A stretch of 28,850 bases of DNA from an uncultured Rhodothermales bacterium (GTDB lineage Bacteria > Bacteroidota > Rhodothermia > Rhodothermales > VXPQ01): positions 16,144 through 44,993 of the forward strand of contig CAZART010000026.1 in assembly GCA_964487555.1 (NCBI GenBank), read 5' to 3'. Position numbers and translations under genes: made by a program. Numbering within the stretch: position 1 is the first letter of the stretch; every line of letters begins with the position of its first letter. Below are positions 4,976 through 28,618 of the stretch, piece after piece. The notes below the pieces were generated by a model. The model worked only from the letters and a program-made list of their open reading frames with translations, searched no databases and had not been told where the DNA came from.

Positions 4976-5397
4976 CGAGATTCGTGACGAAGGCTGGATC
5001 GAGACCCGAAATGTAATGGATGGTTTTCCCACGCATATTGAACCGTCGTGCCGATTGTGCCGTGCACATCCACCAGACCGTGCTCATGGCTCAGAGTTGC
5101 TGCAAAGCTACGTTCTCAACGCGTCGCGGGCAAGGTACGGCTCGAAGGACCGGTGGAGGTTTGAGGTGAATGCCAATAGGGGTACGGCGAAGGCGACGAG
5201 TCCTTCGCCGGAGTTATACAGGCCGCCCGAACCATTGAGGTGGTGCCGTGCGTGTGAGTACTCCGCCTGCTTTGCGAGTGACTGCGTGCGATGTGGCCGC
5301 TTGTTTTCGCGACGCTGTGGCGGTTTCGGGCACAGTCTTTCGCGTGCATCCGACCGCCGGCGAAGATCATATGTGTACTCCTCAAGAACCTGTTTAG

Positions 5398-8037: not shown

Positions 8038-8066
8038 TTGGGTCTCTGTGGTGTGGAAATAGAGGT

Positions 8067-16164: not shown

Positions 16165-16171
16165 TATCAGA

Positions 16172-16858
16172 ATGCGATCCAACAACGCCATGGCCCCCCA
16201 TTCGAATTCGTTGGTCGACGCTCCGCTTCGCATATGGCTCGTCGACGATGACAGCCGGTTTAGCGAGATGTTATCGTTGATCTTGAACGACGTCCCCGAC
16301 ATCATCTGCGATGCCGCTTTTGAGGATTGCGAATCGGCCCTCCGGCGGCTGAGCCAGAACGCCGATGGCGGACTGCCGGGCCTCGTGCTCATGGACGTCA
16401 ACCTTCCTGGAATGAATGGTCTCTCGTGCACGGCGCAGATACACGCACGTTTGCCGGAGGTCCCTATTCTCATGCTGACGATCCGTGACGACGCCGACAC
16501 CATCTATGCGGCTCTACGCGCGGGCGCCTCCGGATACCTCGTGAAAGAGTCGCCGATCGATCAGATCGTGGCAGCCATCCGAGAAGCGCGGAGTGGAGGT
16601 ATGCTGATGCCGGGACCTGTCGCCCGCAAGATGCTATCGTTCTTCGCGCAGGCCTCGTCTTCCGACTACGGCCTCTCTATTCGGGAAATGCAGGTTCTGG
16701 AGAAGATGGTAGAGGGGCTGTCGCAGAAGGAGATCGCTTCGGCACTCTTCGTGAGTCTCTCGACGGTAAACACGCACATCCAGAATATCTACGCGAAACT
16801 CCACGTGCACTCCAGTTCGGCCGCGGTTGCCAAGGCGCTTAAGGAGCGAATCATCTGA
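16172..16858 (+). CDS. NarL/LuxR-family response regulator (REC + LuxR-type HTH)
   Basis: Starts 8 nt after the kinase stop. REC motifs are IWLVDDD, LVLMDVNLPGMNG (phospho-acceptor Asp region), ILMLT and GASGYLVK. LuxR HTH: LSIREMQVLEKMVEGLSQKEIASALFVSLSTVNTHIQNIYAKLHV. Confidence 0.92.
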   Translation: MRSNNAMAPHSNSLVDAPLRIWLVDDDSRFSEMLSLILNDVPDIICDAAFEDCESALRRLSQNADGGLPGLVLMDVNLPGMNGLSCTAQIHARLPEVPILMLTIRDDADTIYAALRAGASGYLVKESPIDQIVAAIREARSGGMLMPGPVARKMLSFFAQASSSDYGLSIREMQVLEKMVEGLSQKEIASALFVSLSTVNTHIQNIYAKLHVHSSSAAVAKALKERII

Positions 16859-17025: not shown

Positions 17026-20000
17026 CTATCTCACCCGCACGATCGAGAGCGTCCGGATGGTGCCACCCGAGCGCATTCGCACCAGATACGTTCCACTCCC
17101 GACCGGCACACCCGCTTCGCTCCGGCCGTTCCACACGGCCGCATGGTAACCCGCCGATGCATTCCCTTCGACCAGCCGTGCCACACGCCTGCCCAGCAGG
17201 TCGTAGACCTCCAGGAGCACGGCCGACGCTTCCGGCACTCCGTACCGGAGCGTCGTTGCATGCTCAAAGGGGTTCGGGAAGTTCTGAAACAACTCGAAAC
17301 TCGACGGTATCTCCGGTCCCGCGTCCCGACCCGGAGTAACCAACAGCGTCAGACGACGCTCCTGCCCGTCCCCGCCGGAGGCGACCGCATAGTGCGGCTG
17401 CGCCCGCAGATCCTGCCGCACGCCCGCCACCTCGTCGACAAGCCACACGCCATACAACGACGGCACGGTCTTGACGCCGTCGAATTGCAGGTCTACCCGG
17501 CCGGAGCGACGGGTTTGAACGGCAACGGTCCAACGCTCTTCGTCCTCAGGCACCGGGCGTACGTCGGCGCTGTACCGCACGGCGTTCGTCTTCCACTCGG
17601 CGTGCGGGAACGACACCCGAACGAACTCCCCGATGCCCGGGGGCTCCGGGCGATCCAGTTCATCCAGGCCTACAGAGGCGTTGGAGGAAACCGCAGCGAA
17701 CGTATGCGCATCGCCGGCCTCACCCTGACTGGCCAGAATCCGGATGAACCATTCAAAGACGCCCTCTCGCCCGGCGCCTTGCACCGATTCACCTCGGCCT
17801 GCGGCCGAGACGTCCGGGTTGATCAGCAGCTCGTCGCTTCCGGGAGAAAAGACGGCATAGCCGGCGAAGGGCATGAGCGCGTCGTGAAGAGAACTCCAAC
17901 TCCCCTCGAACTTCAATAATTCAATGGCCCGGCCGGATGTCGCGCGGACGTTCGCCACGGGAACCGGGAAACTGAAGGGACTGCTCACGAGGTTCCATCC
18001 GTCGTGCAACGGGATTCGGAACGGCTCATCGGTGCGAAGCGACAGGCCTGCACCCGTCGTCAGTTCTTTTCCGGCCTCTTTCACGAGCAGCCAGTAGGCG
18101 TCGCCGGGTCTCAATTCCTGATAGACGCCCACTAATTCGGTGATCTGATCATCATCGAAGAAGCGCCATTTTGTTCTGTCGTACGGGCCGAGATCGTCTT
18201 CCAATACAGCACGCACGTTCTTCTCGTCGAGGTCGAGCGGAACGGAAATCAATCGGTAGGCCGCGGCTTCAGTGCCGGCATGCAACGGGTGGCGCAATCC
18301 GTCCGGCACGTAGAACGGCACAGAGATCGTACCCACCTCGGGCAGACTAGTCGAATGAAATGAGTTTGCAGCCGAGATGTAATACTCAACGCCGCGTTCA
18401 TGGCCCCAAATCGTCTCACTGAATTTGCCGGGAGGCCGCTCGACCAGCGGCTTGCTGCTGAAGGTCGTATCACCGCCGCGACGGTAGAAAAGGGATGCCT
18501 GGAGTCCGTCGCCGCTGCGATCATGGATGCTGGCCGTGACGACTACGTCCTGGTCCGGCGTGGGCACTGCAGGATCCACTCCGGATTCCTCAATGGTCAC
18601 ACCGAGGAGCTCTCGAAGCGACGTCAGCCAGATCGCGCCGCGGTCGATGCCTCCCGCTCGGGTCAAGGGAGCCCCGATGGCGACGTCGATGACGCCGTCC
18701 TCCACGTCGCCGAGTCCGGCAAGCGCTCGGCCGAAGCCTGTGGGGGTCGGGGCGTCGAAGCTGGTGAGGTGTTGTGTGTCCTTGACGCTGTCCTCCGCAG
18801 TTAGAAAGAGGAGAGTCATACCCTCTTGGCCACCTTTGCTCGCACCGACGATCAGTTCCCAGTTGCCATCTCCGTCGATGTCACCCAGCCCGGCCAGAGC
18901 TCCGGTGAGATCATCCACGTTGATGTCGTCCGGACGTATGGCGGTCGAGCGTGCCGTCGAGCCGTCTGCTTCGATCTGAAGGATGTGCAACCCGGCATCG
19001 CCGTCGGCGCCCACGGCGAGGCCGCGCCCGCCGGCCCGCGGGCCCAGATCTGCAAGCGCGCGGCCGAATTGAGGCGTTTCGGGATCCGAAAGGACCCTGT
19101 CCGCGGTGACGGTTCCATTCTCGTTCAGGTTCAGCAGCCATACGGCCCCGCGGTCTGGTCCCTGTTCGTCGTCGAACGGCGCACCCACGGCCAGATTGGG
19201 GCGGCCGTCGCCGGACAGGTCTCCGAGCGAGGCGACGGCAGCCCCAAATTCGTCGCCTTCGCTGACACTGATGCCTAACGTGGACGCATCAATCTTCTCG
19301 TGACTGCGCACGACACCGTCGTCGTCTAGGTGCAATATCCACACGGCACCCCGGCCGTCGTCACCCGGTGCGCCGACGGCCAGCGTCACGCCGTCGGCAC
19401 CACGCTCACCGACCTGAGCCAGCGCCGCACCGAAGCGGTCATTGTCGTTGAGCGTGCCGCCGAAAGCGCTCGAGGAGGCGCTGATTCGCTGATGGCGACG
19501 TATCGTGCCGTCGGGTTTGAGAAACAGGATCCATACGGCGCCTCGGACCGATCCGCCGCCGTCGTCGTCGGGAGCTCCAACGGCGAGGTCTTCGACGCCG
19601 TCCCCATCGAGATCGCCGAGGGACGCGAGCGCAGCGCCGAAATGGTCGAAATCGTCCGGTTGGAAAAGAAAATCTGCGGAGCGGACTTGATGGGTGCGTT
19701 TGACGGTGCCGTCTTCCCTGAGAAAAAGAAACCACAAGGCGCCGTTGCTGTCTTCACGATCGTTCCCAGTACCTGCCGCGACGATATCTGAAGAGACGAC
19801 GAGCGTCTCGACGGTCTCGGGATCGTTGTCCGTGTCGCCCAGCGCCGTGAGCAGGCGGCCGAAATAATCGTTTGCCAGGAGAGTTCCGTCAAAACCGCCT
19901 TCGTTCGACGCAATCTTGTGTTCGCGCTTGACGGTGCCGTTCAGGTTCATGAACAGGATCCACACTTCACCATGGAACCTCTCGCGCATCGCGGCCGGAC

Positions 20001-21183
20001 CATGGGCCATCCGGGTCCTCACGGCCGGCGCGGATACGGCCAGCTCAGGGACGTCGTCGCCATCGAGGTCGTTCAGCGCGGCTACATCCCACCCGAAATT
20101 CGTGCTATCCCGAAGCATGCCCTGAAACCCGCCGTCCGTGCGGCCGATCTTCTGATGCTCACTGACCGTACCGTCTCGGTTCATGAACAAGACCCATACG
20201 ACGCCATTCCAGCAGTTGGGCGTCTCGCAGCCATCGTCGTTATACCTTCCGCTCCCGACCAGTTCCGGCACACCGTCCCCATCGAGATCCAGGCTCGTGA
20301 TGCCCGGTCTGCCGAAGCCCTCCCTCGGACCCTCACCTATGAATCCACCCAGCCGGCATGTAAGATCGTCGTCGGAATCATGAAAATTACAGATGTGCTG
20401 AAAATCCGCCACTCCGTCGTCGTCGTCGAGAAAAGTAATGGTGATTCCGTCCCCGAACGACGTGTAGTCGGGATTCCGATCACCGTTGATATCCATGGCG
20501 CGGTCTCCTTCCGTAGCGCGACAGTGGTTCCAGTCTATGCCTTGCGGATGGGGCTCGTACTCACACACCGTCATCGTATCTCTGGCTGTGCCGTCGCGGT
20601 TGAGGTACAAGATCTTTGTATGGGATTTGTGGACGGAGGCATCAGGCAATGCTATAGCGCCTATCAGATCGGGTACGTCGTCGCCATCGACGTATCCCAG
20701 GGGTGTGACTCCGCCGACCGGTTCTAAACTCCCGTCGCCGCGCTTCAGCGCAATTTGCTGATAGCTGAGCACCGTACCGTCGGTGTGGATGAATAGGGTC
20801 CACACCGTCTGACCCGCCGCGAATGCCAGATCGTTGACGCCGTTCCCGTCCACGTCGCCTGCATTCACGAGCGTATGAAATTGTCCTTCAAGATCACCGC
20901 TGAATCTAATTCCGTTTTCGGCCCTTCCGCGCGGGTCTCCTTCGGTGGCACTGATTTTATGCGGCGTGGTGAGCTGAGCCTCCGCGACGACCGGCACCAT
21001 CAGGCCGAGCACGAGCGCGAGCGTTGCGCTACGAAATGCTGTCCGGAGCGCCGTACGGAATGCGGGTCGACGCGCGGTACGATGCACCCTTTGAAGCGGT
21101 ACGCGAAACGTATTACGAAGCCCGGTCTGGAATGCCTTTCGGCTCCCGGACATCACCTTCATTGGTCTGTATGCATCAGACAT
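17026..21183 (-). CDS. Very large FG-GAP (integrin-alpha-like/VCBS-type) repeat protein with T9SS C-terminal sorting domain
   Basis: More than ten units of the form FG-ALA-LGD(L/V)(D/N)GDG--DLAVGAP-DD-----GAVW(I/L)LFL--DGTV. Examples are FGAALASLGDLDGDGVEDLAVGAPDDDGGGSVRGAVWILFLKPDGTI and FGAAVASLGDLSGDGRPNLAVGAPFDDEQGPDRGAVWLL. A non-repeat beta-rich middle region follows. The T9SS CTD is FELFQNFPNPFEHATTLRYGVPEASAVLLEVYDLLGRRVARLV...GTYLVRMRSGGTIRTLSIVRVR. I prefer the ATG at 21183 (GGGAGGA 5 nt upstream) over the GTG at 21216. The signal peptide core is ATLALVLGLMVPVVAEAQ, after a long Arg-rich n-region. Confidence 0.9.
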   Translation of the reverse strand: MSDAYRPMKVMSGSRKAFQTGLRNTFRVPLQRVHRTARRPAFRTALRTAFRSATLALVLGLMVPVVAEAQLTTPHKISATEGDPRGRAENGIRFSGDLEGQFHTLVNAGDVDGNGVNDLAFAAGQTVWTLFIHTDGTVLSYQQIALKRGDGSLEPVGGVTPLGYVDGDDVPDLIGAIALPDASVHKSHTKILYLNRDGTARDTMTVCEYEPHPQGIDWNHCRATEGDRAMDINGDRNPDYTSFGDGITITFLDDDDGVADFQHICNFHDSDDDLTCRLGGFIGEGPREGFGRPGITSLDLDGDGVPELVGSGRYNDDGCETPNCWNGVVWVLFMNRDGTVSEHQKIGRTDGGFQGMLRDSTNFGWDVAALNDLDGDDVPELAVSAPAVRTRMAHGPAAMRERFHGEVWILFMNLNGTVKREHKIASNEGGFDGTLLANDYFGRLLTALGDTDNDPETVETLVVSSDIVAAGTGNDREDSNGALWFLFLREDGTVKRTHQVRSADFLFQPDDFDHFGAALASLGDLDGDGVEDLAVGAPDDDGGGSVRGAVWILFLKPDGTIRRHQRISASSSAFGGTLNDNDRFGAALAQVGERGADGVTLAVGAPGDDGRGAVWILHLDDDGVVRSHEKIDASTLGISVSEGDEFGAAVASLGDLSGDGRPNLAVGAPFDDEQGPDRGAVWLLNLNENGTVTADRVLSDPETPQFGRALADLGPRAGGRGLAVGADGDAGLHILQIEADGSTARSTAIRPDDINVDDLTGALAGLGDIDGDGNWELIVGASKGGQEGMTLLFLTAEDSVKDTQHLTSFDAPTPTGFGRALAGLGDVEDGVIDVAIGAPLTRAGGIDRGAIWLTSLRELLGVTIEESGVDPAVPTPDQDVVVTASIHDRSGDGLQASLFYRRGGDTTFSSKPLVERPPGKFSETIWGHERGVEYYISAANSFHSTSLPEVGTISVPFYVPDGLRHPLHAGTEAAAYRLISVPLDLDEKNVRAVLEDDLGPYDRTKWRFFDDDQITELVGVYQELRPGDAYWLLVKEAGKELTTGAGLSLRTDEPFRIPLHDGWNLVSSPFSFPVPVANVRATSGRAIELLKFEGSWSSLHDALMPFAGYAVFSPGSDELLINPDVSAAGRGESVQGAGREGVFEWFIRILASQGEAGDAHTFAAVSSNASVGLDELDRPEPPGIGEFVRVSFPHAEWKTNAVRYSADVRPVPEDEERWTVAVQTRRSGRVDLQFDGVKTVPSLYGVWLVDEVAGVRQDLRAQPHYAVASGGDGQERRLTLLVTPGRDAGPEIPSSFELFQNFPNPFEHATTLRYGVPEASAVLLEVYDLLGRRVARLVEGNASAGYHAAVWNGRSEAGVPVGSGTYLVRMRSGGTIRTLSIVRVR

Positions 21184-21252
21184 TGCTATCCTCCCATCTT
21201 TGGGAATCGATTCCACGCTCGCGAAAACTCAATCCGGCAGTCCCTTCTCGAG

Positions 21253-21771
21253 TCACTGTTCGGGATACACCGGCGGCGCCGGCAGATCCGGTACCTCTTC
21301 GTTTCGCAAAAGAAACGGTAGGGCCGCGACGCTGCCGACGACCACGGTGCGGCCGGCCCAATGGTACCAGGCATTGCCGCGCCACAGCCACGTGTACCAC
21401 CGCGGTTTGAGGTCGCTGACGAGGTCGGTGAACACGCGGGGATCGGTCTGTGGATCGGGCTTGAAGCGGCCGTCCGCTTTCAGCAACATCCGCACAGACC
21501 GGCGGGCCTCCTGGAGCGAGTCCCGGGCAACGTAGGAGAGCGCCATGAGCCGATATGCGCTCACGCGCTGGTCTTTCGGAGTGAACCCGTTCGGCAGGCA
21601 CGGCCGGAGGAGTCCGATCGTGCTCGCGAAACGGCCTACGTCGTACGTGTCGGCGGCCTCCGACAAGGTGGCGGCGTCGCACCCGGCCTGTGCCGCCCCG
21701 TTTTGAGCCGGGACCAGAAGTCCCAGCGCGAGAAGCAACGCGATGGAATGATGGCGAATGATCTTGGTCAT
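21253..21771 (-). CDS. Small TPR-like protein with signal peptide and C-terminal membrane anchor
   Basis: The ATG at 21771 overlaps the TGA of the upstream gene (ATGA), with a purine-rich GAGGAAGAGGAA just upstream. Signal peptide MTKIIRHHSIALLLALGLLVPAQNGAAQA. One TPR-like helical hairpin: AYRLMALSYVARDSLQEARRSVRMLLKADGRFKPD. Hydrophobic helix WYHWAGRTVVVGSVAALPFLL near the C-terminus, then a short Pro-rich tail. Family not recognised with certainty. Confidence 0.7.
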   Translation of the reverse strand: MTKIIRHHSIALLLALGLLVPAQNGAAQAGCDAATLSEAADTYDVGRFASTIGLLRPCLPNGFTPKDQRVSAYRLMALSYVARDSLQEARRSVRMLLKADGRFKPDPQTDPRVFTDLVSDLKPRWYTWLWRGNAWYHWAGRTVVVGSVAALPFLLRNEEVPDLPAPPVYPEQ

Positions 21772-24563
21772 TGTTCCTCTTCCTCTGTGCCCCTCGACGG
21801 CTTGCCCCGGTCGGCAGCCGTTAGCGAGCAAGGTTGATAGTCGCGTTCATAGGGGAAGTCATCACCGATGAATTGAGTCCACTCTTCCGGGCGCAGCTCG
21901 CGCCCTTTTACCGACGTGCAGACGGCCTCGGCAAGGCGCCCCGGCTTGACGTTCCAAAGGCGGATGGTGCGGTCGGCGCCCGCCGACGCCAGTCGCGTTC
22001 CATCGGGGCTGAACGCCAGCGACCAAACCCACGAGGCGTGATCCTGAAGGAGAATCGGACGCGTATCCAGCCGCCCGACATCCCATACCTGCACGCTGTG
22101 GTCGGCACTGCCGGACGCGAGGGTCTCACCATCGCTGCTAAACGCCACGGCGTGAACCGGGCCTTCGTGACCCCGCAGCGTCCGCGCAACGTCCGGCACG
22201 GCGTCCGAGGCCTTCAACCGCCATAACCTGACCAGCAGGCTGTCACCGCCCGATGCCAGAAGCGTGCCGTCGGGGCTAAACACCAGACCGTGCAGGATGC
22301 CTTGCCCCGCGTCCCACGTGGTGGGCCGGCCTTCGGGTTCCTGCCAGGCCCAGAGCTGCAGACGGCCGTTCTCACCGCCGATGGCGAGCAACCGTCCGTC
22401 CGGGCTGAAGGAAAGCGAGCGGATCCGCGTACGGACGTCCAGCTCGACCGAATCGCGATCGGCACCCATGCTGCGGACGACGACGGTATGGTCCGCTCCT
22501 GCGGAGGCCAGGTGCGAGCCGTCGGGGGAGAAGGCCAGCGTCCAGACGCCGCTCTCGTGGCGTCCGATCGTCTCCGGCACCGGTGTTTCCGCGTCCAGGC
22601 CGCTCCAGATCCGCACGGTGAGATCGTCGCCGGCCGAGGCCAGCATCGTTCCATCGGGGCTGAAGGCCACGCTCCGCACGGCGGCTCGGTGACCCTTCAA
22701 CTGCTTCCGTTCGCCGCCGGTACCGTTCGGCCACAGGGTTACGCCGCCGGCGTCGTCTCCGGCGGCGACCCAGTGGCCATCGGGACCGTACGCCACGGAA
22801 CGCACCTGAGCCTCCGCCGCGAAAACCTCTGGACCACCTGCGTCGTCGTCGGCATCGAGGGCGTTGAGGCTCTGAAGCAGGGCGTCATAGACGGGATCCA
22901 GAAACTCCCCTTCGCCTTCCCGGCTGAACAAATAGGCCTGCCGGGCCAGCAGCGCTCCCAGTTCGGCATCGCCGAGTCGGAGTTGGCGGGTGGCCGTGCT
23001 GGCCAGAGCGATGGTAATGGTCTCGAGCCGCGCCGCCTGGGTCTCGTCGAGACGCGTTTCCGCCACCGAGCGAAGTGAGTCGGAGACGTGGACTTCGGCC
23101 GCCAGCTGCGTGTTGAGCGAGTCGGAAACGGCAAACTGGGCGGCGAGCTGGGCGTTGACCGCCTCCGTCTCGAGCCGCAGGGCATCGGAGACCGCAAACT
23201 CGGCCGCCAGCTGCGTGTTGATCGCTTCCGTTCCGGCTCGAAGAGAGTCTGAAATCCGAACCTGGTTGGACAACTGCACGTTGGCCGCTTGCGCCGCTGC
23301 GTGGAGGGAGTCGGTGATCTGGATCTGGTCCGACAACTGCTGGTTCAGCGCTTCTTGAACCGCGCTCTGCCGTTCTGCCTGGCCCGCCCGCTGGGTTTGC
23401 AGTACGAAGAGGCCGAGCAGAACCACCGACATGAAGAGGGCCGCCACGAGGCCGAGCACGGCGGGAGGCACGCGCCGGATCCAATGCTCCGGCCACTGGT
23501 CCTTGAGCCATGAGCGGTTGAAGACCGCCGCATAGATCGGGTTGCGGACTTCCAACCGGCCGTTTTGTCGTCCGACGATGCCGGAGAGCTTGAGGTGCGT
23601 GATGGGGGCCGATTGTACGTCGTCGGGTACGCGCCGCCCCTGTAGGATGGCCTGGTACGTGGCCAGAACCGCGCTCGGATCCGCCGCCCGGCGCGTCAAC
23701 ATGTCGTGGACGAAGCGTAGATTGCTGTCGTGCTCGCTCTGCTGCCCGAGGAACGTCGCCGTCACGGCGCGGTCGACGTCCACGTCGGTTGACCCGATGT
23801 GCTGCTGCTCGGCGATGACCTGACAGAGCCGCTGCGTCAGGTACGGATGGCCGCCGGTCCAGCGTACGACGTCACGAAGTTGCTGCCGCGCTTCGTCCGC
23901 AGGCAGGTCGAATCCGCCGGCCAGCGGCATCGCTTCGTCTTCAGTGAAGTAGTCCAGGTCTATACGTCGACCGACGTTAAAAGGGGTGCGGCGAGGGTCG
24001 CCGATCAGGTCGTTCGGCGTGGCCACACCGATCAGGACGAATGAGAGCCGCTTGAAGGCAGGAACAGTGGATCGGGCGTTATGGACGTATCGGATCGCGG
24101 CAAAGAAATCATCGGTGAACGGCAGACTCAGCGTGCTGTCGATTTCGTCGATAAAGATCACTACCGGTTCGGCGATCTCTTCCAGCAGGATTTCTTGCAA
24201 AAACTGCGTTAACCGCTGCGTGAAGCCAAGTTGCTCGTGGGTCTTCCACCAGGTAAAAACGTCGGCCTTCAGCCGGAGGCGGCGGCTGATCGCCATGATG
24301 AGACCGAAGTACCACGCCTCATCCTCGACCTGGACGCCCATCTGACTCAGATCTATGATTACGGAGCGCACGCCTTCGTCGGCCAGCCGTTCGGCCGTTC
24401 GGATCATGAGGCTGGACTTGCCCATCTGCCGAGCCGTCAACACGAAGGCGAACGTTTGGCTGCGGCAGAGTTGGAGAAGCTCGTCGTCGACCTCGCGCGG
24501 GATGTAGAGACCGCTGCCGGCCTGCACGGTCCCGCCTATGGTAAAGATGTTTTCTTTAGCCAT
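21768..24563 (-). CDS. AAA-like (PF14516/AAA_35-like, STAND-style) P-loop NTPase, followed by one TM helix, a 21-residue-repeat coiled coil and a 7-blade WD40 propeller
   Basis: The N-terminal roughly 355 aa follow the pattern I know from cyanobacterial AAA-like domain proteins. That pattern is FTIGGTVQAGSGLYIPREVDDELLQ...FAFVLTARQMGKSSL (Walker A), VVIFIDEIDS (Walker B), RRTPFNVGRRIDL and WTGGHPYLTQRLCQ. The remaining elements are annotated as separate sub-features. The ATG at 24563 lies inside the last codons of the upstream gene (an 8-nt overlap). Confidence 0.9.
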   Translation of the reverse strand: MAKENIFTIGGTVQAGSGLYIPREVDDELLQLCRSQTFAFVLTARQMGKSSLMIRTAERLADEGVRSVIIDLSQMGVQVEDEAWYFGLIMAISRRLRLKADVFTWWKTHEQLGFTQRLTQFLQEILLEEIAEPVVIFIDEIDSTLSLPFTDDFFAAIRYVHNARSTVPAFKRLSFVLIGVATPNDLIGDPRRTPFNVGRRIDLDYFTEDEAMPLAGGFDLPADEARQQLRDVVRWTGGHPYLTQRLCQVIAEQQHIGSTDVDVDRAVTATFLGQQSEHDSNLRFVHDMLTRRAADPSAVLATYQAILQGRRVPDDVQSAPITHLKLSGIVGRQNGRLEVRNPIYAAVFNRSWLKDQWPEHWIRRVPPAVLGLVAALFMSVVLLGLFVLQTQRAGQAERQSAVQEALNQQLSDQIQITDSLHAAAQAANVQLSNQVRISDSLRAGTEAINTQLAAEFAVSDALRLETEAVNAQLAAQFAVSDSLNTQLAAEVHVSDSLRSVAETRLDETQAARLETITIALASTATRQLRLGDAELGALLARQAYLFSREGEGEFLDPVYDALLQSLNALDADDDAGGPEVFAAEAQVRSVAYGPDGHWVAAGDDAGGVTLWPNGTGGERKQLKGHRAAVRSVAFSPDGTMLASAGDDLTVRIWSGLDAETPVPETIGRHESGVWTLAFSPDGSHLASAGADHTVVVRSMGADRDSVELDVRTRIRSLSFSPDGRLLAIGGENGRLQLWAWQEPEGRPTTWDAGQGILHGLVFSPDGTLLASGGDSLLVRLWRLKASDAVPDVARTLRGHEGPVHAVAFSSDGETLASGSADHSVQVWDVGRLDTRPILLQDHASWVWSLAFSPDGTRLASAGADRTIRLWNVKPGRLAEAVCTSVKGRELRPEEWTQFIGDDFPYERDYQPCSLTAADRGKPSRGTEEEEQ
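21939..22817 (-). other. WD40 beta-propeller, 7 blades (sub-feature of CDS 21768..24563)
   Basis: Seven units. (1) VRSVAYGPDGHWVAAGDDAGGVTLW. (2) GHRAAVRSVAFSPDGTMLASAGDDLTVRIW. (3) RHESGVWTLAFSPDGSHLASAGADHTVVVR. (4) IRSLSFSPDGRLLAIGGENGRLQLW. (5) ILHGLVFSPDGTLLASGGDSLLVRLW. (6) GHEGPVHAVAFSSDGETLASGSADHSVQVW. (7) DHASWVWSLAFSPDGTRLASAGADRTIRLW. Confidence 0.9.
23052..23345 (-). repeat. In-frame degenerate tandem repeat, 63-nt / 21-aa unit (five units of 21, 21, 21, 14 and 21 aa) encoding a probable coiled coil
   Basis: Protein residues 407-504 of CDS 21768..24563. The units are NQQLSDQIQITDSLHAAAQAA, NVQLSNQVRISDSLRAGTEAI, NTQLAAEFAVSDALRLETEAV, NAQLAAQFAVSDSL and NTQLAAEVHVSDSLRSVAETR. 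All unit lengths are multiples of 7. The periodicity is also visible in the DNA (recurring gccagctgcgtgtt...gagtcgga). Confidence 0.75.
23400..23471 (-). other. Predicted single transmembrane helix (sub-feature of CDS 21768..24563)
   Basis: Residues 365-388, VPPAVLGLVAALFMSVVLLGLFVL, form an uninterrupted 24-residue hydrophobic stretch. It is preceded by HWIRR (positive-inside on the NTPase side) and followed by QTQRAGQAERQ. Confidence 0.7.
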
Positions 24564-27204
24564 CGAAGTGATCCCGGAAGTACTCGGCGTAGAGTCTGCA
24601 TCGGGGTATCACGGCCCGCCCGTCCCGAAGTACGAGCCCGGCGCCCTGCAGCCTCCAGAAGACCTCGTCGTCATCGCACCTCTGGTGCCGGATGACCTCT
24701 CGCAGACCCGCTATCAGGTCGTCGTGTCCGTGGAGCCGGAACAGGTGGTAGCGCAGGTGATCACCGAAGGGACCGCGGTCGCGTGTGGCGGAAGCAAGCA
24801 GCTCGGAGATCGACATCTGCCCGCCGGCGACGAGGTAAAACGCTTTGCGCGTCAAATACGGGTGCCCGCCCAGCATCGCCATCATTTGCCCGATCTCATC
24901 CGCTGAGCACGGCGCGCCGTGTCGATCGCCGAGTTCCTCCACTTGCCCCGGTGTGAAGTCCTTCATCTCGATGATTTCCCCGACGTTAAACGGCGATTGA
25001 TTCAGGTTTTCGATCAGCTGGTAGGGTTCGGTGGAGGTGACGAGGGCCAGGTCCAGCCGCTTCCATATTCGGGCGGTGGCGCGGTCGTTGTGCCAGCTGC
25101 GCAGCATCCCGAAGAAATCGGAGCGGAAGCCCGTATCGAAGACGCGTTCAACCTCGTCCATGGCCAGCACCAGTGGCCGGTCGATGGCTCCCAGGATACA
25201 GTCTTCGACATAGAGCGTACAGCACTGGCTATTGCCCAGCGGCCACTGCCAGTATTCCTCCACTCTATTCTCCAGCTTCAACTTGAAGGTGAGCCAGACG
25301 CAGAACTGTTGGAAGAACGTGTCGGCGTCGTTTAGAGCCGACTGATTGAACAGTTGAAAATCGAGGAAAACGACCTGCTTTCCGGCTTTGGCAGCCGCGT
25401 TCATCGTGCGTACGAGCAGGGAACTCTTGCCCATCTGGCGTGGGCCTTTGATGGTAAGGGTAACTCCTCGCTGCTTGATGGCCCCTTGGGCTACGTCGTC
25501 TTGCGGTCGGTGCACGTAGAAGGCGGAGTGCGGGTCCATCGTACCCTCCGGCGTCTCGAGGTGCGGTTGCGCCGCCGCCAGCGGTTCCGGGAACGTCGGC
25601 GGAGCCTGCTCTTCGGTCGGACGGGCACGGGCACGCCACGACGCGCTGAGATCGCCACCGGCAATGGCGCGCGTGAGCTGCTCGATCAACCTGGAAGTAT
25701 CCGCTTCGCCGCCCCAGAAGGCCCAGTTGAGATCGTTGAGATAGGCGCTGAGGGGGTAGACAAACGGCTGCGTATAGTCCAGACGCACGGGGAGGAGGGC
25801 CGGTCGCCCACCCCGTTCCTCCGCCAGGCGGTGTGCCGTCTGGATCTCCGCGAGCACCATTTCGCTGTGGATGGATCGGGCCGACAGCAGGACGATTAGA
25901 AAATCGGACTGTGCCAATTCGGCTTCAATCTGCGCGATCCAGCGCGCGCCTATCGGCAGCATCGTATCGATGAAAACGTCGTGGTCGCTGCTCAGGGCGT
26001 CGTAGATCGCGCCGGCGACCTCATCGTCGGGCTCTCCGCCTCTCTTGTAGCTGATGAAGATGCGCGGCCGCTGGAGGTGGTTGGTACGGTCCAGGGAAGG
26101 CGCATCTACAGGTGTCGTATCCGGAAGCGGTGTGGCGGCGCCCCGTTCGAGGAGACGGCGCCGTACACGGTGTAGATCGGCCAGCAGCAGGGACGCCGTC
26201 CGATAGCGGTTGGTCCGCTGCTTCTCAAGACACTTGTAAACGACGGCCCCAAGATCCGGCGGCAGATCGCCGTTGAGCAGCGCCATCGGTAGGGGATCCT
26301 CGTTCAGCACCTGATAGATGGTGGCCTGCTCGGTCCCTTCGCGAAACGGCCTCTTTCCAGTGATCATTTCGTACATGACGACGCCCAGCGACCACAAATC
26401 CGTCCGCTGGTCGACCGCCTCGCCGCGCGCCTGCTCCGGACTCATGTAGGCCGCCGTCCCCAGCGCCGTACCTGCCCGCGTCAGGCTTACATCTTGCACT
26501 TTTGCGATCCCGAAATCGACGAGTCTAACGCGTGCCTGTTCGGTCACGATGACGTTGCTCGGCTTGATGTCCCGGTGCAGGATTCCGCCCGTATGTGCCG
26601 CCTTCAGCCCATCGGCCATCTGTATCGCGTGGTCGAGGGCCTCTTCCAGCGGAATCGCGCCGCGCGCGATCCTCGCTTTGAGCGTCTCGCCGGAATAGTA
26701 GGCCATTGCGATGAAGAGCCGCCCGTCATCCGTCTCGTCGACGTCGTAGACGGTGCAGATGTTGGGGTGGTCCAGCGCGGAGGCCGCCTTGGCCTCGTGC
26801 ATGAAGCGCACCTTGGCCTGCTCGTCCAGATTCAGGTGGGGCGAGAGAAACTTAAGCGCCACACTGCGATCGAGCCTCGTGTCGCGAGCTTTGTAGACGA
26901 CGCCCATGCCACCCCGGCCGAGCTGTTCCTGAACCTGATACCGGGAAATGTTCAGTCCGGTTAGGTCATGTAGCCCCGGCTGAGCCGCTGAGGGAGCCGC
27001 CAAAAGGAATCGTTCGAGGACGTTGCGGACGCCGCCGCCCCGGTCCTCGAAGGCGCCGAGCAGGGCTTCCACTTCGTAACGGATGTCGTCGTCAGGGCTT
27101 TCTCGGTCGAGGTAGGCGTTACGTACGTCGGGCTCGAGGTCGGCGGCTTCATCAAAGAGGCGCCGGATCTGCTCGGCGCGCTGGTCTGAGACGGGAAGGC
27201 TCAT
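24556..27204 (-). CDS. Multidomain Ser/Thr protein kinase, TIR and AAA-like (PF14516-like, STAND-style) NTPase fusion protein
   Basis: 882 aa. The N-terminal helical leader RAEQIRRLFDEAADLEPDVRNAYLDRESPDDDIRYEVEALLGAF is typical of kinases partnered with TIGR02999/ECF43 sigma factors. The kinase, TIR and NTPase domains are annotated as sub-features. Its stop lies 8 nt inside the next gene. Confidence 0.9.
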   Translation of the reverse strand: MSLPVSDQRAEQIRRLFDEAADLEPDVRNAYLDRESPDDDIRYEVEALLGAFEDRGGGVRNVLERFLLAAPSAAQPGLHDLTGLNISRYQVQEQLGRGGMGVVYKARDTRLDRSVALKFLSPHLNLDEQAKVRFMHEAKAASALDHPNICTVYDVDETDDGRLFIAMAYYSGETLKARIARGAIPLEEALDHAIQMADGLKAAHTGGILHRDIKPSNVIVTEQARVRLVDFGIAKVQDVSLTRAGTALGTAAYMSPEQARGEAVDQRTDLWSLGVVMYEMITGKRPFREGTEQATIYQVLNEDPLPMALLNGDLPPDLGAVVYKCLEKQRTNRYRTASLLLADLHRVRRRLLERGAATPLPDTTPVDAPSLDRTNHLQRPRIFISYKRGGEPDDEVAGAIYDALSSDHDVFIDTMLPIGARWIAQIEAELAQSDFLIVLLSARSIHSEMVLAEIQTAHRLAEERGGRPALLPVRLDYTQPFVYPLSAYLNDLNWAFWGGEADTSRLIEQLTRAIAGGDLSASWRARARPTEEQAPPTFPEPLAAAQPHLETPEGTMDPHSAFYVHRPQDDVAQGAIKQRGVTLTIKGPRQMGKSSLLVRTMNAAAKAGKQVVFLDFQLFNQSALNDADTFFQQFCVWLTFKLKLENRVEEYWQWPLGNSQCCTLYVEDCILGAIDRPLVLAMDEVERVFDTGFRSDFFGMLRSWHNDRATARIWKRLDLALVTSTEPYQLIENLNQSPFNVGEIIEMKDFTPGQVEELGDRHGAPCSADEIGQMMAMLGGHPYLTRKAFYLVAGGQMSISELLASATRDRGPFGDHLRYHLFRLHGHDDLIAGLREVIRHQRCDDDEVFWRLQGAGLVLRDGRAVIPRCRLYAEYFRDHFDG
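24565..25539 (-). other. AAA-like P-loop NTPase module paralogous to the N-terminus of CDS 21768..24563 (sub-feature of CDS 24556..27204)
   Basis: Walker A is GPRQMGKS (nt 25423..25446, checked on the DNA) and Walker B is LVLAMDEVE. QSPFNVGEIIEM corresponds to RTPFNVGRRIDL in the neighbouring protein. LGGHPYLTRKAF corresponds to TGGHPYLTQRLC. Confidence 0.8.
25771..26067 (-). other. TIR domain (TIR_2/PF13676-like; sub-feature of CDS 24556..27204)
   Basis: RIFISYKRGGEPDDEVAGAIYDALSSDHDVFIDTMLPIGARWIAQIEAELAQSDFLIVLLSARSIHSEMVLAEIQTA. This shows the F(I/V)SY start, the D--L--G--W---I—— S-(hydrophobic)4-LS pattern, and a Glu (E453, codon 25846..25848) at the position of the catalytic Glu of NAD-cleaving TIR domains. 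Confidence 0.8.
26170..26940 (-). other. Hanks-type Ser/Thr kinase catalytic domain (sub-feature of CDS 24556..27204)
   Basis: All catalytic signatures are present. These are the Gly-rich loop LGRGGMGVVY, VALK (Lys118), HRDIKPSNV (HRD at nt 26569..26577, checked on the DNA), DFGIAK and GTAAYMSPEQ. Confidence 0.9.
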
Positions 27205-27473: not shown

Positions 27474-28049
27474 ATGCCCATGCAGGAAGACGTTACACAG
27501 ATGCTCGTGCAGTGGAGCGATGGCGACGATGATGCCCTCGAGCGGCTCCTGCCGCTACTCTACGACGAGCTAAAGCGCCTGGCCGGTGCGCGTATGCGAG
27601 GCGAGCGCTCCGATCATACGTTGAACACGACCGCCCTCGTTCACGAAGCCTATCTAAAGCTCATAGACGTCGACCGTGTACAGTGGACAGACCGGGCGCA
27701 CTTTCTGGCCATGGCCTCGCGACAGATGCGTCGGATCCTTATTGACTACGCGCATCGGCGGAATGCCCGAAAACGTGGGGGCGGCGTGGAACACGTAGCG
27801 CTGGAAGAGGAGCGGTATATTCCGGAGGACTATGCCGATACGCTGCTCGAGTTGGACGATGCCCTGCAACGCTTCGAGAAGTCGTATCCCCGACAGGCGG
27901 AGGCCGTTGAATTGCACTATTTCGGCGGCCTGACGTTGGAGGAGTCCGGCGCGGTGCTCGGCGTTTCGGCGCCTACGATCATGCGAGATCTGCGATTCGC
28001 CCACTCGTGGCTGGCGCGCGACTGGGATCCGGATTCTCCCGATGCTTAG
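27474..28049 (+). CDS. ECF sigma factor, TIGR02999 / ECF43-like (Ser/Thr-kinase-associated type)
   Basis: Family-typical N-terminus DVTQMLVQWSDGDDDALERLLPLLYDELKRLAGARMRGERSDHTLNTTALVHEAYLKL. Also W-DRAHFLAMASRQMRRILIDYAHRRNARKRGGG. Region 4: VELHYFGGLTLEESGAVLGVSAPTIMRDLRFAHSWL. It is divergent from the kinase fusion gene. Confidence 0.9.
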   Translation: MPMQEDVTQMLVQWSDGDDDALERLLPLLYDELKRLAGARMRGERSDHTLNTTALVHEAYLKLIDVDRVQWTDRAHFLAMASRQMRRILIDYAHRRNARKRGGGVEHVALEEERYIPEDYADTLLELDDALQRFEKSYPRQAEAVELHYFGGLTLEESGAVLGVSAPTIMRDLRFAHSWLARDWDPDSPDA

Positions 28050-28618
28050 AGGCTAATTGTTCCACCCCACTCCTTCGCGAACCACGCCCGGGCAAATCGC
28101 AAGTCGCGCTCCACGGTCGTTAGCGATACGCTCAGCGCTTCGGCAGTTTCTTCATTCGTCAAGCCGCCGAAGTATCGGTGCTCGACGGCCTCCGCCTGCC
28201 GAGGATGCGTCTCCTCGAAGCGCTTAAGAGCGTCGTCGAGTTCCAGCAGCGTCTCAGCGTGTTCGTCCGGAATCAGGCGCTCCTCGTCGAGTGTTTCCCG
28301 CTGCGCGCCTCCGCCTCGCTTCTGAGCCTTTCGCTGGAGCGCATAATTGACGAGGACACGCCGCATCACCTTCGAGGCCATCGCAAAGAAATGGCCGCGG
28401 TTTTCCCATTGAATCTGGTTGATGTCGGCCAGCCTCAGGTACGCTTCGTGAACGAGGCCCGTCGTGTTTAGCGTGTGGCCCGGCCGTTCCTCTCGCAACC
28501 GTGCGTGAGCGAGTTTGCGCAGCTGCTCGTAGAGGACGGGCACGATCCGATCGAGCGCCTCGCGATCGCCCTCCCCGTAGGCGTTCAGGAGCCTGGTCAC
28601 GTCGGCCTGTGAGAGCAT
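28046..28618 (-). CDS. ECF sigma factor, TIGR02999 / ECF43-like, paralog of 27474..28049
   Basis: DVTRLLNAYGEGDREALDRIVPVLYEQLRKLAHARLREERPGHTLNTTGLVHEAYLRL...HFFAMASKVMRRVLVNYALQRKAQKRGGG...VEHRYFGGLTNEETAEALSVSLTTVERDLRFARAWF. My gap-free hand alignment with the neighbour gives 107 identical positions out of 190. The stop codon TAA (complement of 28046..28048) overlaps the neighbour's TAG (28047..28049). Confidence 0.9.
   Translation of the reverse strand: MLSQADVTRLLNAYGEGDREALDRIVPVLYEQLRKLAHARLREERPGHTLNTTGLVHEAYLRLADINQIQWENRGHFFAMASKVMRRVLVNYALQRKAQKRGGGAQRETLDEERLIPDEHAETLLELDDALKRFEETHPRQAEAVEHRYFGGLTNEETAEALSVSLTTVERDLRFARAWFAKEWGGTISL

Follow-up and report, generated by a model that had tools for sequence, protein, structure and literature searches.

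A predicted membrane-spanning WD40 sensor paired with a TIR-bearing AAA_35 NTPase in an uncultured Rhodothermales bacterium

Results

The window (the whole stretch of DNA that was analysed, 28,850 nt from an uncultured Rhodothermales bacterium) contains an open reading frame on the minus strand (21768..24563) whose 931-aa product combines an AAA_35 NTPase, a transmembrane (TM) helix, a stalk, a WD40 propeller and a tail. An identical product is recorded as a gene call on the source contig. We refer to this protein as the sensor subunit; all features described below lie on the minus strand unless stated otherwise. The host is diderm, as a TonB-dependent receptor and T9SS sorting domains encoded elsewhere in the window show.

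The P-loop NTPase module (residues 11 to 349; 23517..24533) was assigned to Pfam family PF14516 with an E value of 8.5e-37, scoring 127 bits where the cut-off is 27. Walker A (ARQMGKSS, residues 44 to 51; 24411..24434) and Walker B (VVIFIDEID, residues 134 to 142; 24138..24164) were read from the sequence. Little or no variation is seen across 40 homologues at R45, Q46, G48, K49 and S50; D139 is invariant and E140 nearly so. AlphaFold2 modelled the module with a pLDDT of 87 and the full-length protein with a mean pLDDT of 83.6; the module ends in a winged-helix-like hairpin (strands 330 to 333 and 336 to 339). Foldseek matched it best to 2qen, 2fna, Orc1/Cdc6 and RuvB, with Avs4, Avs5, Roq1, RPP1 and MalT ranked lower. 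A preliminary description of this DNA had called the protein a STAND-style NTPase; the fold is AAA+/ORC-Cdc6/SSO1545-like with a winged helix, the matches to Avs4, NLRs and MalT coming lower down.

Between this module and the coiled coil and WD40 region lies one hydrophobic helix of 24 residues, as had been proposed (residues 365 to 388, VPPAVLGLVAALFMSVVLLGLFVL; 23400..23471). It is preceded on the NTPase side by R363-R364, also as described, and followed by QTQRAGQAERQ. The segment is uncharged throughout, without a central proline or charge; its maximal Kyte-Doolittle mean over 19 residues is 2.81, a value reached by 10 of 5000 composition-preserving shuffles, and its summed Hessa scale is -3.3 kcal/mol. 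No other segment is of TM strength (best window elsewhere 1.19), and AlphaFold2 places the helix at residues 367 to 388. The suggested survey of homologues revealed a TM helix at this position in 80 of 87 loci and at the equivalent position in approximately 94 of the best 120 homologues; 62 of the 63 WD40-type sensors are single-pass. Flanking charges follow the positive-inside rule across homologues (mean K+R 3.8 on the N-terminal side versus 2.6 on the C-terminal side; N greater than C in 68, the reverse in 7), the bias of the Rhodothermales sensor by itself being weak (3 versus 2).

Following the helix is a stalk or coiled coil (residues 395 to 529; 22977..23381), modelled with low confidence as a monomer in two helices (395 to 458 and 467 to 529). 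It comprises five repeats of roughly 21 residues (N-x-Q-L-[SA]...) starting at residues 407, 428, 449, 470 and 484, with no tandem repeat at the DNA level. A helical cap (residues 533 to 569, LGDAELGALLARQAYLF...; 22857..22967; helices 533 to 549 and 555 to 569, pLDDT ~90) precedes the propeller, and its motif is common to homologues, including 561-aa members without a propeller. The seven blades claimed for the WD40 domain (PF00400, E 1.4e-60, approximately residues 580 to 885) were borne out by 28 AlphaFold2 strands at residues 579 to 871 (21951..22829; pLDDT >90).

The post-propeller tail (residues 874 to 912; 21828..21944) was modelled as helices 874 to 884, 892 to 898 and 905 to 908, and contains the pair Cys882...Cys912 and the motif R-E-L-x-x-E-E-W-x-x-F. 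A search with a tail profile returned 3475 cluster representatives. The preliminary description had noted, as a caveat to an external propeller, that the tail (AVCTSVKGRELRPEEWTQFIGDDFPYERDYQPC, residues 880 to 912) resembles those of cytoplasmic WD40 NTPases. Such carriers do exist: of about 31 long WD40 proteins with the tail, about 8 are devoid of TM segments, and a propeller joined to this tail can therefore function in the cytoplasm as well. However, the long carriers are mostly of the type TIR/caspase/trypsin-nSTAND1-TM-WD40-tail, with the same helix, and the resemblance thus speaks for a membrane-spanning reading. Where the tail is of the Cys type, exactly two cysteines lie C-terminal to the TM helix; the 561-aa subfamily conserves a single cysteine in that part, and the homologues thus show no general even-cysteine signature of exported proteins.

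Directly upstream lies the gene of an 882-aa partner, the putative effector subunit (24556..27204), whose stop overlaps the sensor start by 8 nt (ATGGCTAA, junction read directly). Pfam assigns to it a Hanks-type Ser/Thr kinase domain (residues 89 to 339; 26188..26940; PF00069, E 4.7e-49), a TIR domain (382 to 502; 25699..26061; PF13676, E 2e-18) and an AAA_35 module (552 to 877; 24574..25551; PF14516, E 3.8e-111; Walker A PRQMGKSS, Walker B LAMDE). No segment of the partner reaches TM strength (maximal 19-residue Kyte-Doolittle mean 1.34). Its AAA_35 module is a paralogue of that of the sensor (30% identity, E 3e-29), and Walker A and B are intact in both. This gene, the carrier of the effectors, had been overlooked in the preliminary description.

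Species genomes from six or more phyla yielded at least 596 relatives, and 87 loci were compared. In 75 of the 87, the gene immediately upstream and on the same strand is a partner-type AAA_35 gene, and in 43 loci the overlap is exactly 8 nt. Among 68 partners, TIR_2 is present in 64, CHAT in 33 and a kinase in 5; the TIR motif S-E-M-V-x-x-E is nearly invariant. The pairing of a TIR-AAA_35 gene with an AAA_35-TM-sensor gene is widespread, and TIR is the constant effector of the family.

The position of the propeller is occupied in homologues by CHASE2 (E 6e-71 to 2e-62), FGE-sulfatase/C-lectin, PD40, CarboxypepD_reg/PEGA-like domains or a dead lambda-lysozyme without the catalytic Glu. CHASE2 is a classic extracytoplasmic sensor. 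In three loci (L014, L019 and L042) the hydrophobic segment takes the place of the first CHASE2 TM helix. The architecture of L019 is AAA_35-TM-CHASE2-3TM-Pkinase; for both ATP-using domains to be cytoplasmic, the first helix must cross the membrane, which argues that it does. Among the closest WD40 relatives, 98 are full-length, and 54 of these have signal-peptide-like N-termini.

Downstream of the sensor, a gene for a 172-aa protein (21253..21771; also on record as a gene call) begins with an ATG that overlaps the sensor TGA (ATGA, junction read directly). The product has a signal-peptide-like N-terminus (…LLLALGLLVPAQNGAAQA/GC), two conserved cysteines and a C-terminal hydrophobic segment, and matched no Pfam family. 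A homologue of 58% identity occupies the equivalent place in L001, and others occur in L012, L017 and L048. Further downstream is a 1396-aa FG-GAP repeat protein with a FlgD_ig C-terminal domain (17026..21216; Pfam), which is probably secreted or T9SS-sorted; homologues also lie downstream in L001, L012 and L017. On the plus strand, divergent from the kinase operon, is an ECF sigma factor with an ECF43-type NTTA motif (27474..28049; PF07638, E 3e-56), and convergent with it a second with an NTTG motif (28046..28618, minus strand; PF07638, E 9e-58). L001 and L017 likewise have an ECF gene beside that of the kinase, and among the loci compared this link is confined to those of Rhodothermales type. 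Relative to the basic pair, the Rhodothermales-like genome thus adds the Hanks kinase, ECF43-type sigma factors, the small exported protein and the FG-GAP protein.

Discussion

Comparison strongly favours an N-in/C-out topology of the sensor, with a cytoplasmic NTPase and, as first suggested, a periplasmic propeller. The conserved helix, the charge bias, the domain swaps, the exported relatives and the helix of most long tail-bearing proteins all make this predicted arrangement the most likely one. We consider it probable that the protein serves as sensor in a membrane-spanning NTPase switch of two subunits, with a periplasmic propeller and a soluble kinase-TIR-AAA_35 partner. The sensor would be a single-pass inner-membrane protein, its AAA_35 module cytoplasmic, helix 365 to 388 crossing once, and the stalk, seven-bladed propeller and Cys-bracketed tail in the periplasm. 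The partner, from the translationally coupled upstream gene, would be soluble and would contribute the paralogous AAA_35 module, TIR and, in the Rhodothermales lineage, the Hanks kinase. A ligand, which may derive from a phage, a predator, an epibiont or a competitor or be a product of envelope damage, would bind the propeller, perhaps modulated by the 172-aa exported protein encoded just downstream. Binding would make the stalk and TM helices pack differently, permitting nucleotide-dependent assembly of the AAA_35 modules of sensor and partner at the membrane, a hetero-oligomerisation proposed from gene linkage only. Clustering would then activate the partner: TIR would degrade NAD+ or make a signalling nucleotide, and the kinase would phosphorylate the adjacent ECF43-type sigma factor or factors and so change transcription, a possible target being the neighbouring FG-GAP surface protein gene. 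The pair could let bacteria sense threats outside the cell and then start an internal immune-type response.

The same topology might instead serve ordinary envelope signalling, a split receptor kinase relaying a cue from the periplasm or cell surface to ECF43-type sigma factors that control the adjacent FG-GAP/T9SS surface proteins, with TIR as a mere assembly scaffold. The cluster of ECF sigma factor, kinase-TIR-AAA_35, sensor, small exported protein and FG-GAP protein is indeed kept in Rhodothermales loci, and neighbouring receptor Hanks kinases with periplasmic repeat domains control ECF43 sigma factors elsewhere (PMC13147305). Known defence-system models also give no match; as none of the PADLOC models matches the AAA_35 parts, a defence role is proposed by analogy only. 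However, the family-wide constant of the partner is TIR, often with CHAT and rarely with a kinase, and TIR retains its nearly invariant motif. Caspase, CHAT-TPR and nSTAND1-TPR genes are among the neighbours, as is a Tn7-like element, and the sensor position is highly variable, FGE-sulfatase/C-lectin domains included. TIR/CHAT partners, caspase-type neighbours and a variable sensor typify the conflict systems described by Kaur et al. (PMC7159879, PMC8195603), and we regard a purely envelope-signalling role as unlikely.

Less likely still is that the segment is a tether only (monotopic, re-entrant or buried), the WD40 domain sensing intracellular ligands near the membrane in the manner of STAND/NLR proteins. 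The weak charge asymmetry of the Rhodothermales sensor would fit such a tether, as would the propeller-plus-tail module in TM-less NTPase proteins (e.g. P0263, P0276, P0314, P0325, P0352 and P0362) and the cytoplasmic location of characterised bacterial STAND sensors (Avs; PMC13581612). Against it stand the length and hydrophobicity of the segment, its equivalence to the first CHASE2 TM helix, the domains typical of the cell exterior that follow it in homologues and the mostly exported close WD40 relatives. Several defence systems use TM segments as effectors, and TM is among the effector types of STAND and cyclase systems (PMC13581612; 10.64898/2026.08.12.744502). By that precedent the resting protein could be soluble, its helix shielded until NTPase oligomerisation inserts the helix to depolarise the membrane as in abortive-infection TM effectors. 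We consider this very improbable, the helix lying between NTPase and sensor rather than in an effector position, the partner bearing dedicated effectors (TIR, CHAT, kinase) and the CHASE2 variants requiring a constitutive TM helix. So hydrophobic a helix in mid-translation is, moreover, normally inserted co-translationally (SRP/Sec).

The proposed membrane-spanning switch shares with the effector-nSTAND1-TM-beta-propeller/TPR proteins (PMC8195603) a cytoplasmic P-loop NTPase, one helix of TM strength, a helical linker, WD40 repeats and the tail R-x-L-T-x-E-E-W. Unlike in those, the NTPase is AAA_35 and the effectors reside on a paralogous partner instead of the same chain. Kaur, Iyer, Burroughs & Aravind 2021 list the architecture string 'nSTAND1+TM' 412 times in their supplement and leave the topology aside in their main text (PMC8195603). 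The NTPase-TM-sensor architecture is widespread rather than rare and is in print only within supplementary tables; the AAA_35 two-gene pair seems undescribed.

ECF43 sigma factors have a QTTA consensus, Thr replacing the acidic sigma-2.2 motif, and phosphorylation of this Thr by a neighbouring Hanks kinase activates them (PMC13147305); NTTA stands here in its place. As with PknS/EcfK of Xanthomonas citri and PknT/EcfP of Vibrio parahaemolyticus, the kinase gene adjoins a PF07638-type sigma factor gene and a periplasmic repeat domain is the presumed sensor (PMC13147305). PknS, however, has kinase, TM helix and periplasmic TPR on one polypeptide, whereas here the TM helix and sensor are on a second protein, the two proteins share only the AAA_35 module, and TIR lies between kinase and NTPase.

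With STAND/NLR-like sensors (Avs1-5, bNACHT, plant and animal NLRs, MalT) the protein has in common a P-loop NTPase, a helical and winged-helix extension and C-terminal repeats, and TIR is an effector in both. It differs in its best structural matches (archaeal SSO1545/PAB2304-type ATPases and Orc1/Cdc6), in the absence of an N-terminal effector from the sensor chain and in the predicted location of the sensor outside the cytoplasm. Animal Toll-like receptors offer a functional analogy only: an extracellular repeat sensor and a single TM helix act on a cytoplasmic TIR via induced proximity. The sensors are non-homologous (LRR there, WD40 here), and TIR is here on a separate protein that would be recruited via the NTPase modules.

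In the Esr pathway of Schaalia odontolytica, the surface WD40-class propeller EsrA1 senses an attacker, activates a Ser/Thr kinase and reprograms transcription (PMC13622651, preprint), a precedent for an extracellular WD40 sensor feeding such a kinase. EsrA1, unlike our sensor, is secreted as a surface-linked filament in a monoderm and works with MoxR/vWA, not AAA_35/TIR. The nSTAND2 two-gene operon (Kaur et al. 2021) likewise has adjacent STAND-like NTPase genes with a proposed hetero-oligomer and a variable effector on one subunit. Its sequences are unrelated to AAA_35 and it lacks a TM sensor; the P-loop of its effector subunit is eroded, whereas the Walker motifs of both subunits are intact here.

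The sensor subunit joins an AAA_35 NTPase to a WD40 propeller

The sensor subunit is the 931-residue product of the open reading frame at 21768..24563 (-), and an identical product is recorded as a gene call on the 48-kb source contig. Pfam analysis assigned residues 11 to 349 to AAA_35 (PF14516, 'AAA-like domain'; E 8.5e-37, 127.1 bits against a cut-off of 27), the match spanning positions 4 to 330 of the 331 in the model. Both the Walker A (RQMGKSS) and Walker B (VVIFIDE) motifs are present and conserved. WD40 repeats (PF00400, E 1.4e-60) occupy approximately residues 580 to 885. NCBIfam holds no model for the sensor, and a sequence search of PDB chains with the NTPase module returned no match up to E 1. 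Promoter and terminator scans gave results at chance level only.

A full-length AlphaFold2 model (38 input sequences, mean pLDDT 83.6) placed 28 strands at residues 579 to 871 with pLDDT >90. These close into the seven-blade propeller proposed in a preliminary description made from the sequence alone. The model further contains a helix at 367 to 388, cap helices at 533 to 569 and a structured tail at 874 to 908. Confidence was low for two long helices at 395 to 458 and 467 to 529, which is usual when a coiled coil is predicted from a single chain. Within the stalk, a unit of approximately 21 residues occurs five times, with no tandem repeat behind it at the DNA level.

A single hydrophobic helix follows the NTPase module in most of the family

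Residues 365 to 388 (VPPAVLGLVAALFMSVVLLGLFVL) form the sole segment of transmembrane strength in the sensor, as in a single-pass receptor, and R363-R364 stand immediately before it. The single helix between the P-loop module and the coiled coil plus propeller, with Arg-Arg on its NTPase side, was thus recovered as it had been described. Its best 19-residue Kyte-Doolittle mean (KD19) was 2.81 and its summed Hessa-scale value -3.3 kcal/mol, with the next best window in the protein reaching 1.19. A KD19 of 2.81 was attained by just 10 of 5000 shuffles. The sensor is rich in Ala, Leu and Val, and 46% of shuffles passed a threshold of 1.8; calls in homologues therefore go beyond this threshold and rest on conserved position and a continuous run of uncharged residues.

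The preliminary description had proposed a survey of homologues for this segment. Of the 120 best homologues, about 94 have a hydrophobic stretch after the conserved W-x-K-x-H-x-P-x-N-W-R-K-R motif; among 87 homologous loci (the window included), 80 have it at this position. Sixty-two of the 63 WD40-type sensors are single-pass. The exception, from an uncultured Chloroflexia (locus L013), has a second, very hydrophobic segment (VVVPVVIAVVIAVVIAVVV) at its C-terminus, about residue 954 after the first helix, which may be a second anchor. As a gauge of positive-inside charge bias, K+R were counted within 15-residue flanks and numbered 3 on the N side of the sensor helix and 2 on the C side. Family means were 3.8 and 2.6, respectively, with the N side richer in 68 members, the two sides equal in 19 and the C side richer in 7. 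A Tat signal requires an RRxFLK context; on reading the sequence, R-R-V-P-P was rejected as such a signal, given its location at residue 363 rather than at the N-terminus and the absence of that context.

The sensor is encoded with a partner carrying the effector domains

The gene directly upstream, at 24556..27204 (-), encodes the partner, a proposed effector subunit of 882 residues in which Pfam identified a Hanks kinase (89 to 339), a TIR domain (382 to 502) and a second AAA_35 module (552 to 877; E 3.8e-111, 371.5 bits). The partner has no hydrophobic segment of transmembrane strength (maximum KD19 1.34), and its stop overlaps the sensor start by 8 nt (ATGGCTAA). The two AAA_35 modules share 30% identity (E 3e-29) and both retain Walker A and B (GKS, DE); by this measure they are paralogues.

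Scanned at one genome per species, the sensor-type module has at least 596 relatives, the majority in filamentous or social bacteria. The best 80 of these derive from Cyanobacteria (mostly Nostocales), Chloroflexota, Acidobacteriota, Rhodothermales, Myxococcota, Cytophagia and Verrucomicrobiota. Every open reading frame in the 87 loci, the window among them, was classed with two local HMMs. In 75 of these loci the sensor gene is directly preceded, on its own strand, by a partner-type AAA_35 gene, with the exact 8-nt overlap in 43. Among 68 partner N-terminal regions, Pfam identified TIR_2 in 64, CHAT in 33, Pkinase in 5, and a cyclase, a trypsin and an EAD7 domain in one each; the S-E-M-V-x-x-E motif of the TIR domain is nearly invariant. 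Taken with the pairing counts, this gives a constant core of TIR-AAA_35 followed by AAA_35-TM-variable. Some loci also hold caspase, CHAT-TPR and nSTAND1-TPR genes and a Tn7-like element. Comparison of the core proteins with PADLOC-DB v2 returned a generic kinase match and weak TIR and P-loop matches only, leaving the AAA_35 modules unmatched.

The AAA_35 module resembles STAND and ORC-like NTPases

The sensor had been called STAND-style, and in one respect this stood: a P-loop with intact Walker A and B motifs is common to the sensor and the STAND class (Leipe et al. 2004). Members of that class carry effector or adaptor, NTPase and repeat sensor on one chain, whereas the NTPase of the sensor begins at residue 11 and no effector precedes it. 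The kinase and TIR effectors sit instead on the partner, so that the single-chain layout does not apply. In the two-gene nSTAND2 system (Kaur et al. [quoted passage not shown] We rejected identity of the AAA_35 pair with nSTAND2, since the two are unrelated in sequence and nSTAND2 has an eroded P-loop in one protein, whereas both AAA_35 proteins keep both motifs.

Foldseek was queried with the model of sensor residues 1 to 357 (pLDDT 87). The top matches were archaeal PAB2304 (2qen) and SSO1545 (2fna), with TM scores of about 0.55-0.58, followed by Orc1/Cdc6 and RuvB and, lower, by Avs4, Roq1, RPP1, MalT and Avs5. Scores across the SSO1545/PAB2304 and Orc1/Cdc6 matches ranged from 0.47 to 0.58. 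In the AlphaFold2 model the NTPase core is followed by a helical lid and a winged-helix-like beta-hairpin (330 to 339). The predicted fold fits a STAND-like or ORC-like relative of the AAA+ proteins, with its clade unsettled.

A family termed 'Npun2340/2341' reportedly belongs to the MNS clade of Leipe et al. (2004). That clade is cited in PMC8195603, the supplement of which lists 'MNS-STAND+FGS' proteins from Oscillochloris. From this citation, the Foldseek matches and the Oscillochloris listing, we suspect that AAA_35 is the 'Npun2340/2341 family'.

A small, predicted exported protein and ECF sigma factors adjoin the pair

Downstream of the sensor, a gene at 21253-21771 (-) encodes a small protein of 172 residues with a signal-peptide-like N-terminus, two conserved cysteines and, at the C-terminal end, a hydrophobic stretch. 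The ATG of this gene overlaps the sensor TGA (ATGA), an arrangement by which it is predicted to be translationally coupled to the sensor gene. The protein matches no Pfam family. It occurs downstream of the sensor in the Rhodothermales-type loci L001, L012, L017 and L048, the L001 homologue being 58% identical, and may act on the propeller in the periplasm as a co-factor or inhibitor.

Beyond the partner, two paralogous ECF sigma factor genes (PF07638; 27474-28049 (+), E 3e-56, and 28046-28618 (-), E 9e-58) converge with a 4-nt 3' overlap; no anti-sigma gene is apparent. In ECF43 factors, phosphorylation of a threonine in the consensus QTTA by a neighbouring Hanks kinase activates the sigma factor (PMC13147305). 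The corresponding motifs here are NTTA (27474-28049) and NTTG (28046-28618), so that the window holds a kinase gene adjacent to a PF07638 sigma gene with an uncharged Thr motif in sigma-2.2, the composition of an ECF43/Hanks module. The same adjacency was seen in L001 and L017. The canonical ECF43 kinase itself spans the membrane and bears a periplasmic repeat domain. Conversely, the window kinase is predicted to be soluble, and the putative membrane-spanning sensor is a second protein linked to it by a common type of AAA_35 module.

Replacement domains suggest that the propeller is periplasmic

To place the propeller relative to the membrane, we considered the domains that occupy its position in homologues. 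WD40-like repeats were detected by phmmer in 63 of the 87 sensors. Their position is taken by CHASE2 in L014, L019 and L042 (E 6e-71 to 2e-62), FGE-sulfatase/C-type-lectin-like domains in L050, L059 and L085, TPR in L028, PD40 in L004, CarboxypepD_reg/PEGA in L006 and DUF2610 in L070. In two further proteins, P0056 and P0051 (the latter in L007), the position holds a domain homologous to phage lambda lysozyme (PDB 3d3d/1am7, E 1e-25) whose AWSEGT motif has lost its catalytic Glu to Ile or Leu (AWTIGT or AWSLGT). Such a dead lysozyme might bind peptidoglycan as a sensor or act as a decoy. The gene in L007 (465-2288 (+)) lies beside Tn7-like tnsB/tniB/tniQ genes. Domains of extracytoplasmic type (CHASE2, FGE-sulfatase, PD40, CarboxypepD_reg/PEGA and dead lambda lysozyme) thus stand at the equivalent position with a consistent topology.

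CHASE2 is reportedly an extracytoplasmic sensor domain with one transmembrane helix before it and three after (Zhulin et al. 2003). In the CHASE2 homologues, the helix following AAA_35 fills the slot of the first of these. The L019 protein (4950-8196 (+), Nostoc cf. edaphicum) comprises AAA_35, a TM helix, CHASE2, three hydrophobic stretches and a Ser/Thr kinase. Both of its ATP-using domains can be cytoplasmic only if the first helix crosses the membrane. An NTPase and a kinase flank an extracytoplasmic sensor in this protein; L014 and L042 have the same layout minus the kinase.

Among 98 full-length closest relatives of the WD40 region, 54 have a signal-peptide-like start, 7 a later N-terminal anchor and 37 neither; proteins with WD40 repeats of this type thus appear to be commonly exported in bacteria. 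A TonB-dependent receptor and T9SS sorting domains are encoded in the window, which implies that the host has an outer membrane and that 'outside' means the periplasm. Taken together, these comparisons argue for a probable N-in/C-out topology, with the NTPase cytoplasmic and the propeller periplasmic.

A reservation in the preliminary description concerned the tail (residues 880 to 912), which was said to resemble those of cytoplasmic WD40 NTPases. A 43-position profile of the tail found 3475 cluster representatives among 1.84 billion proteins. About 20 of approximately 31 long full-length matches have one TM-strength segment between the N-terminal module and the WD40 repeats. The helix is thus common to most tail-bearing WD40 NTPases, which resolves the reservation in the main; a segment of this kind is truly absent from about 8 long tail proteins, and the propeller-plus-tail module is not strictly specific to one compartment. 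Such proteins count in favour of a cytoplasmic propeller on a protein tethered to the membrane, an arrangement that we consider unlikely beside the layout of L019 and the extracytoplasmic replacements. With the TIR and kinase domains on the partner and the helix placed between NTPase and sensor, we regard a role for the helix as a pore-forming effector as highly improbable.

In six tail proteins the N-terminal module was scanned, and each gave nSTAND1 (E 1e-34 to 1e-117); in some, a TIR, trypsin or caspase domain comes first. Large proteins of this kind (P0254, P0285, P0301, P0365, P0378, P0381, P0332 and P0359) run from nSTAND1 through one TM-strength helix to WD40 repeats and the same C-terminal tail, headed by a TIR, trypsin or caspase domain or by no effector. 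An abundant Blastocatellia-type subfamily of 561 residues (the P0049-P0110 group; e.g. L002 6001-7686) retains AAA_35, helix, coiled coil, pre-propeller cap, tail and a single conserved Cys, and lacks the propeller. In L002 the upstream genes encode a TIR protein and an nSTAND1-TPR protein in place of TIR-AAA_35. An even cysteine count after the helix, of the Cys882/Cys912 type, did not serve as an export mark: WD40 members with the Cys tail have two and the 561-residue subfamily one, so that it is not a general export signal.

A proposed transmembrane route to TIR and kinase activation

With the sensor inserted N-in/C-out, as the periplasmic reading predicts, the propeller would bind a ligand in the periplasm, a step that the small protein encoded downstream may control, after which the stalk and TM helices would rearrange. 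The cytoplasmic AAA_35 modules of sensor and partner, paralogous and encoded by paired genes, could then assemble in a nucleotide-dependent manner. Clustered TIR domains would be switched on, and the kinase would phosphorylate the ECF43-type sigma factor or factors. This suggests that in the Rhodothermales pair sigma-factor phosphorylation gives a graded transcriptional output besides that of TIR.

We tentatively propose, at somewhat less than even confidence, that the pair is a bacterial analogue of Toll-like receptors assembled from NLR-like components. Pattern recognition by a periplasmic propeller would nucleate, across the inner membrane, a hetero-oligomer of two AAA_35 NTPases, activating a TIR NADase and, here, a kinase acting on ECF43 sigma factors. 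The same topology might serve ordinary envelope signalling rather than conflict, with which the ECF43 branch would accord; beside the near-constant TIR domain and the caspase and CHAT-TPR genes of some loci, we think this rather unlikely. If the Toll-like reading holds, phages, predators or epibionts would be detected at the envelope, before entry to the cytoplasm. To our knowledge, the bacterial STAND/NLR-like immune sensors characterised so far all recognise invader proteins inside the cell. Placing the sensor outside and the TIR, CHAT or kinase effectors inside would bring the periplasm or cell surface within reach of NTPase-switch immunity. Such an arrangement would also raise the question, which no experiments yet address, of how ligand binding is relayed by one helix to an NTPase that oligomerises.

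The idea of extracytoplasmic sensors in conflict systems is not new. TM segments with extracellular domains were described in several such systems (Kaur et al., PMC7159879); a later supplement lists 'nSTAND1+TM' 412 times, on which the text is silent (Kaur et al. 2021, PMC8195603). A periplasmic C-lectin was predicted on one NACHT protein (Doré et al., PMC10907252), and a 2026 preprint (PMC13622651) describes signalling from a WD40 protein on the surface to a Ser/Thr kinase. Searches of the literature for PF14516, AAA_35 with TIR, and STAND-TM-periplasmic WD40 found no description of the AAA_35 pair. Its features are the split of sensor and effector between paralogous NTPases, the constant TIR, the transmembrane sensor and, here, the kinase/ECF43 branch. 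Experiments on transmembrane activation of an NLR-like switch come within reach with this pair. It does not constitute a wholly new category. A large family with a two-gene core and swappable sensors (WD40, CHASE2, C-lectin, dead lysozyme) renders the question of signal relay through the helix directly testable.

Further genes at the locus

An FG-GAP protein of 1396 residues with a FlgD_ig C-terminal domain is encoded at 17026-21216 (-), 36 nt downstream of the small-protein gene on the same strand, and is probably T9SS-sorted. Homologues lie downstream of the sensor in L001, L012 and L017, and the protein may belong to the regulon or to the system itself. The sensor of L012 (5988-7320 (+), a Rhodothermales MAG; P0012, 439 residues) stops 49 residues past the helix, perhaps through truncation or a frameshift; genes for the small protein and the FG-GAP protein still follow further downstream. 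Within the window, a hybrid sensor histidine kinase with Reg_prop/Y_Y_Y propeller repeats (12898-16164 (+)) is followed by a LuxR-type response regulator (16172-16858 (+)). This pair (12898-16858 (+)) is a separate envelope-sensing system beside the locus.
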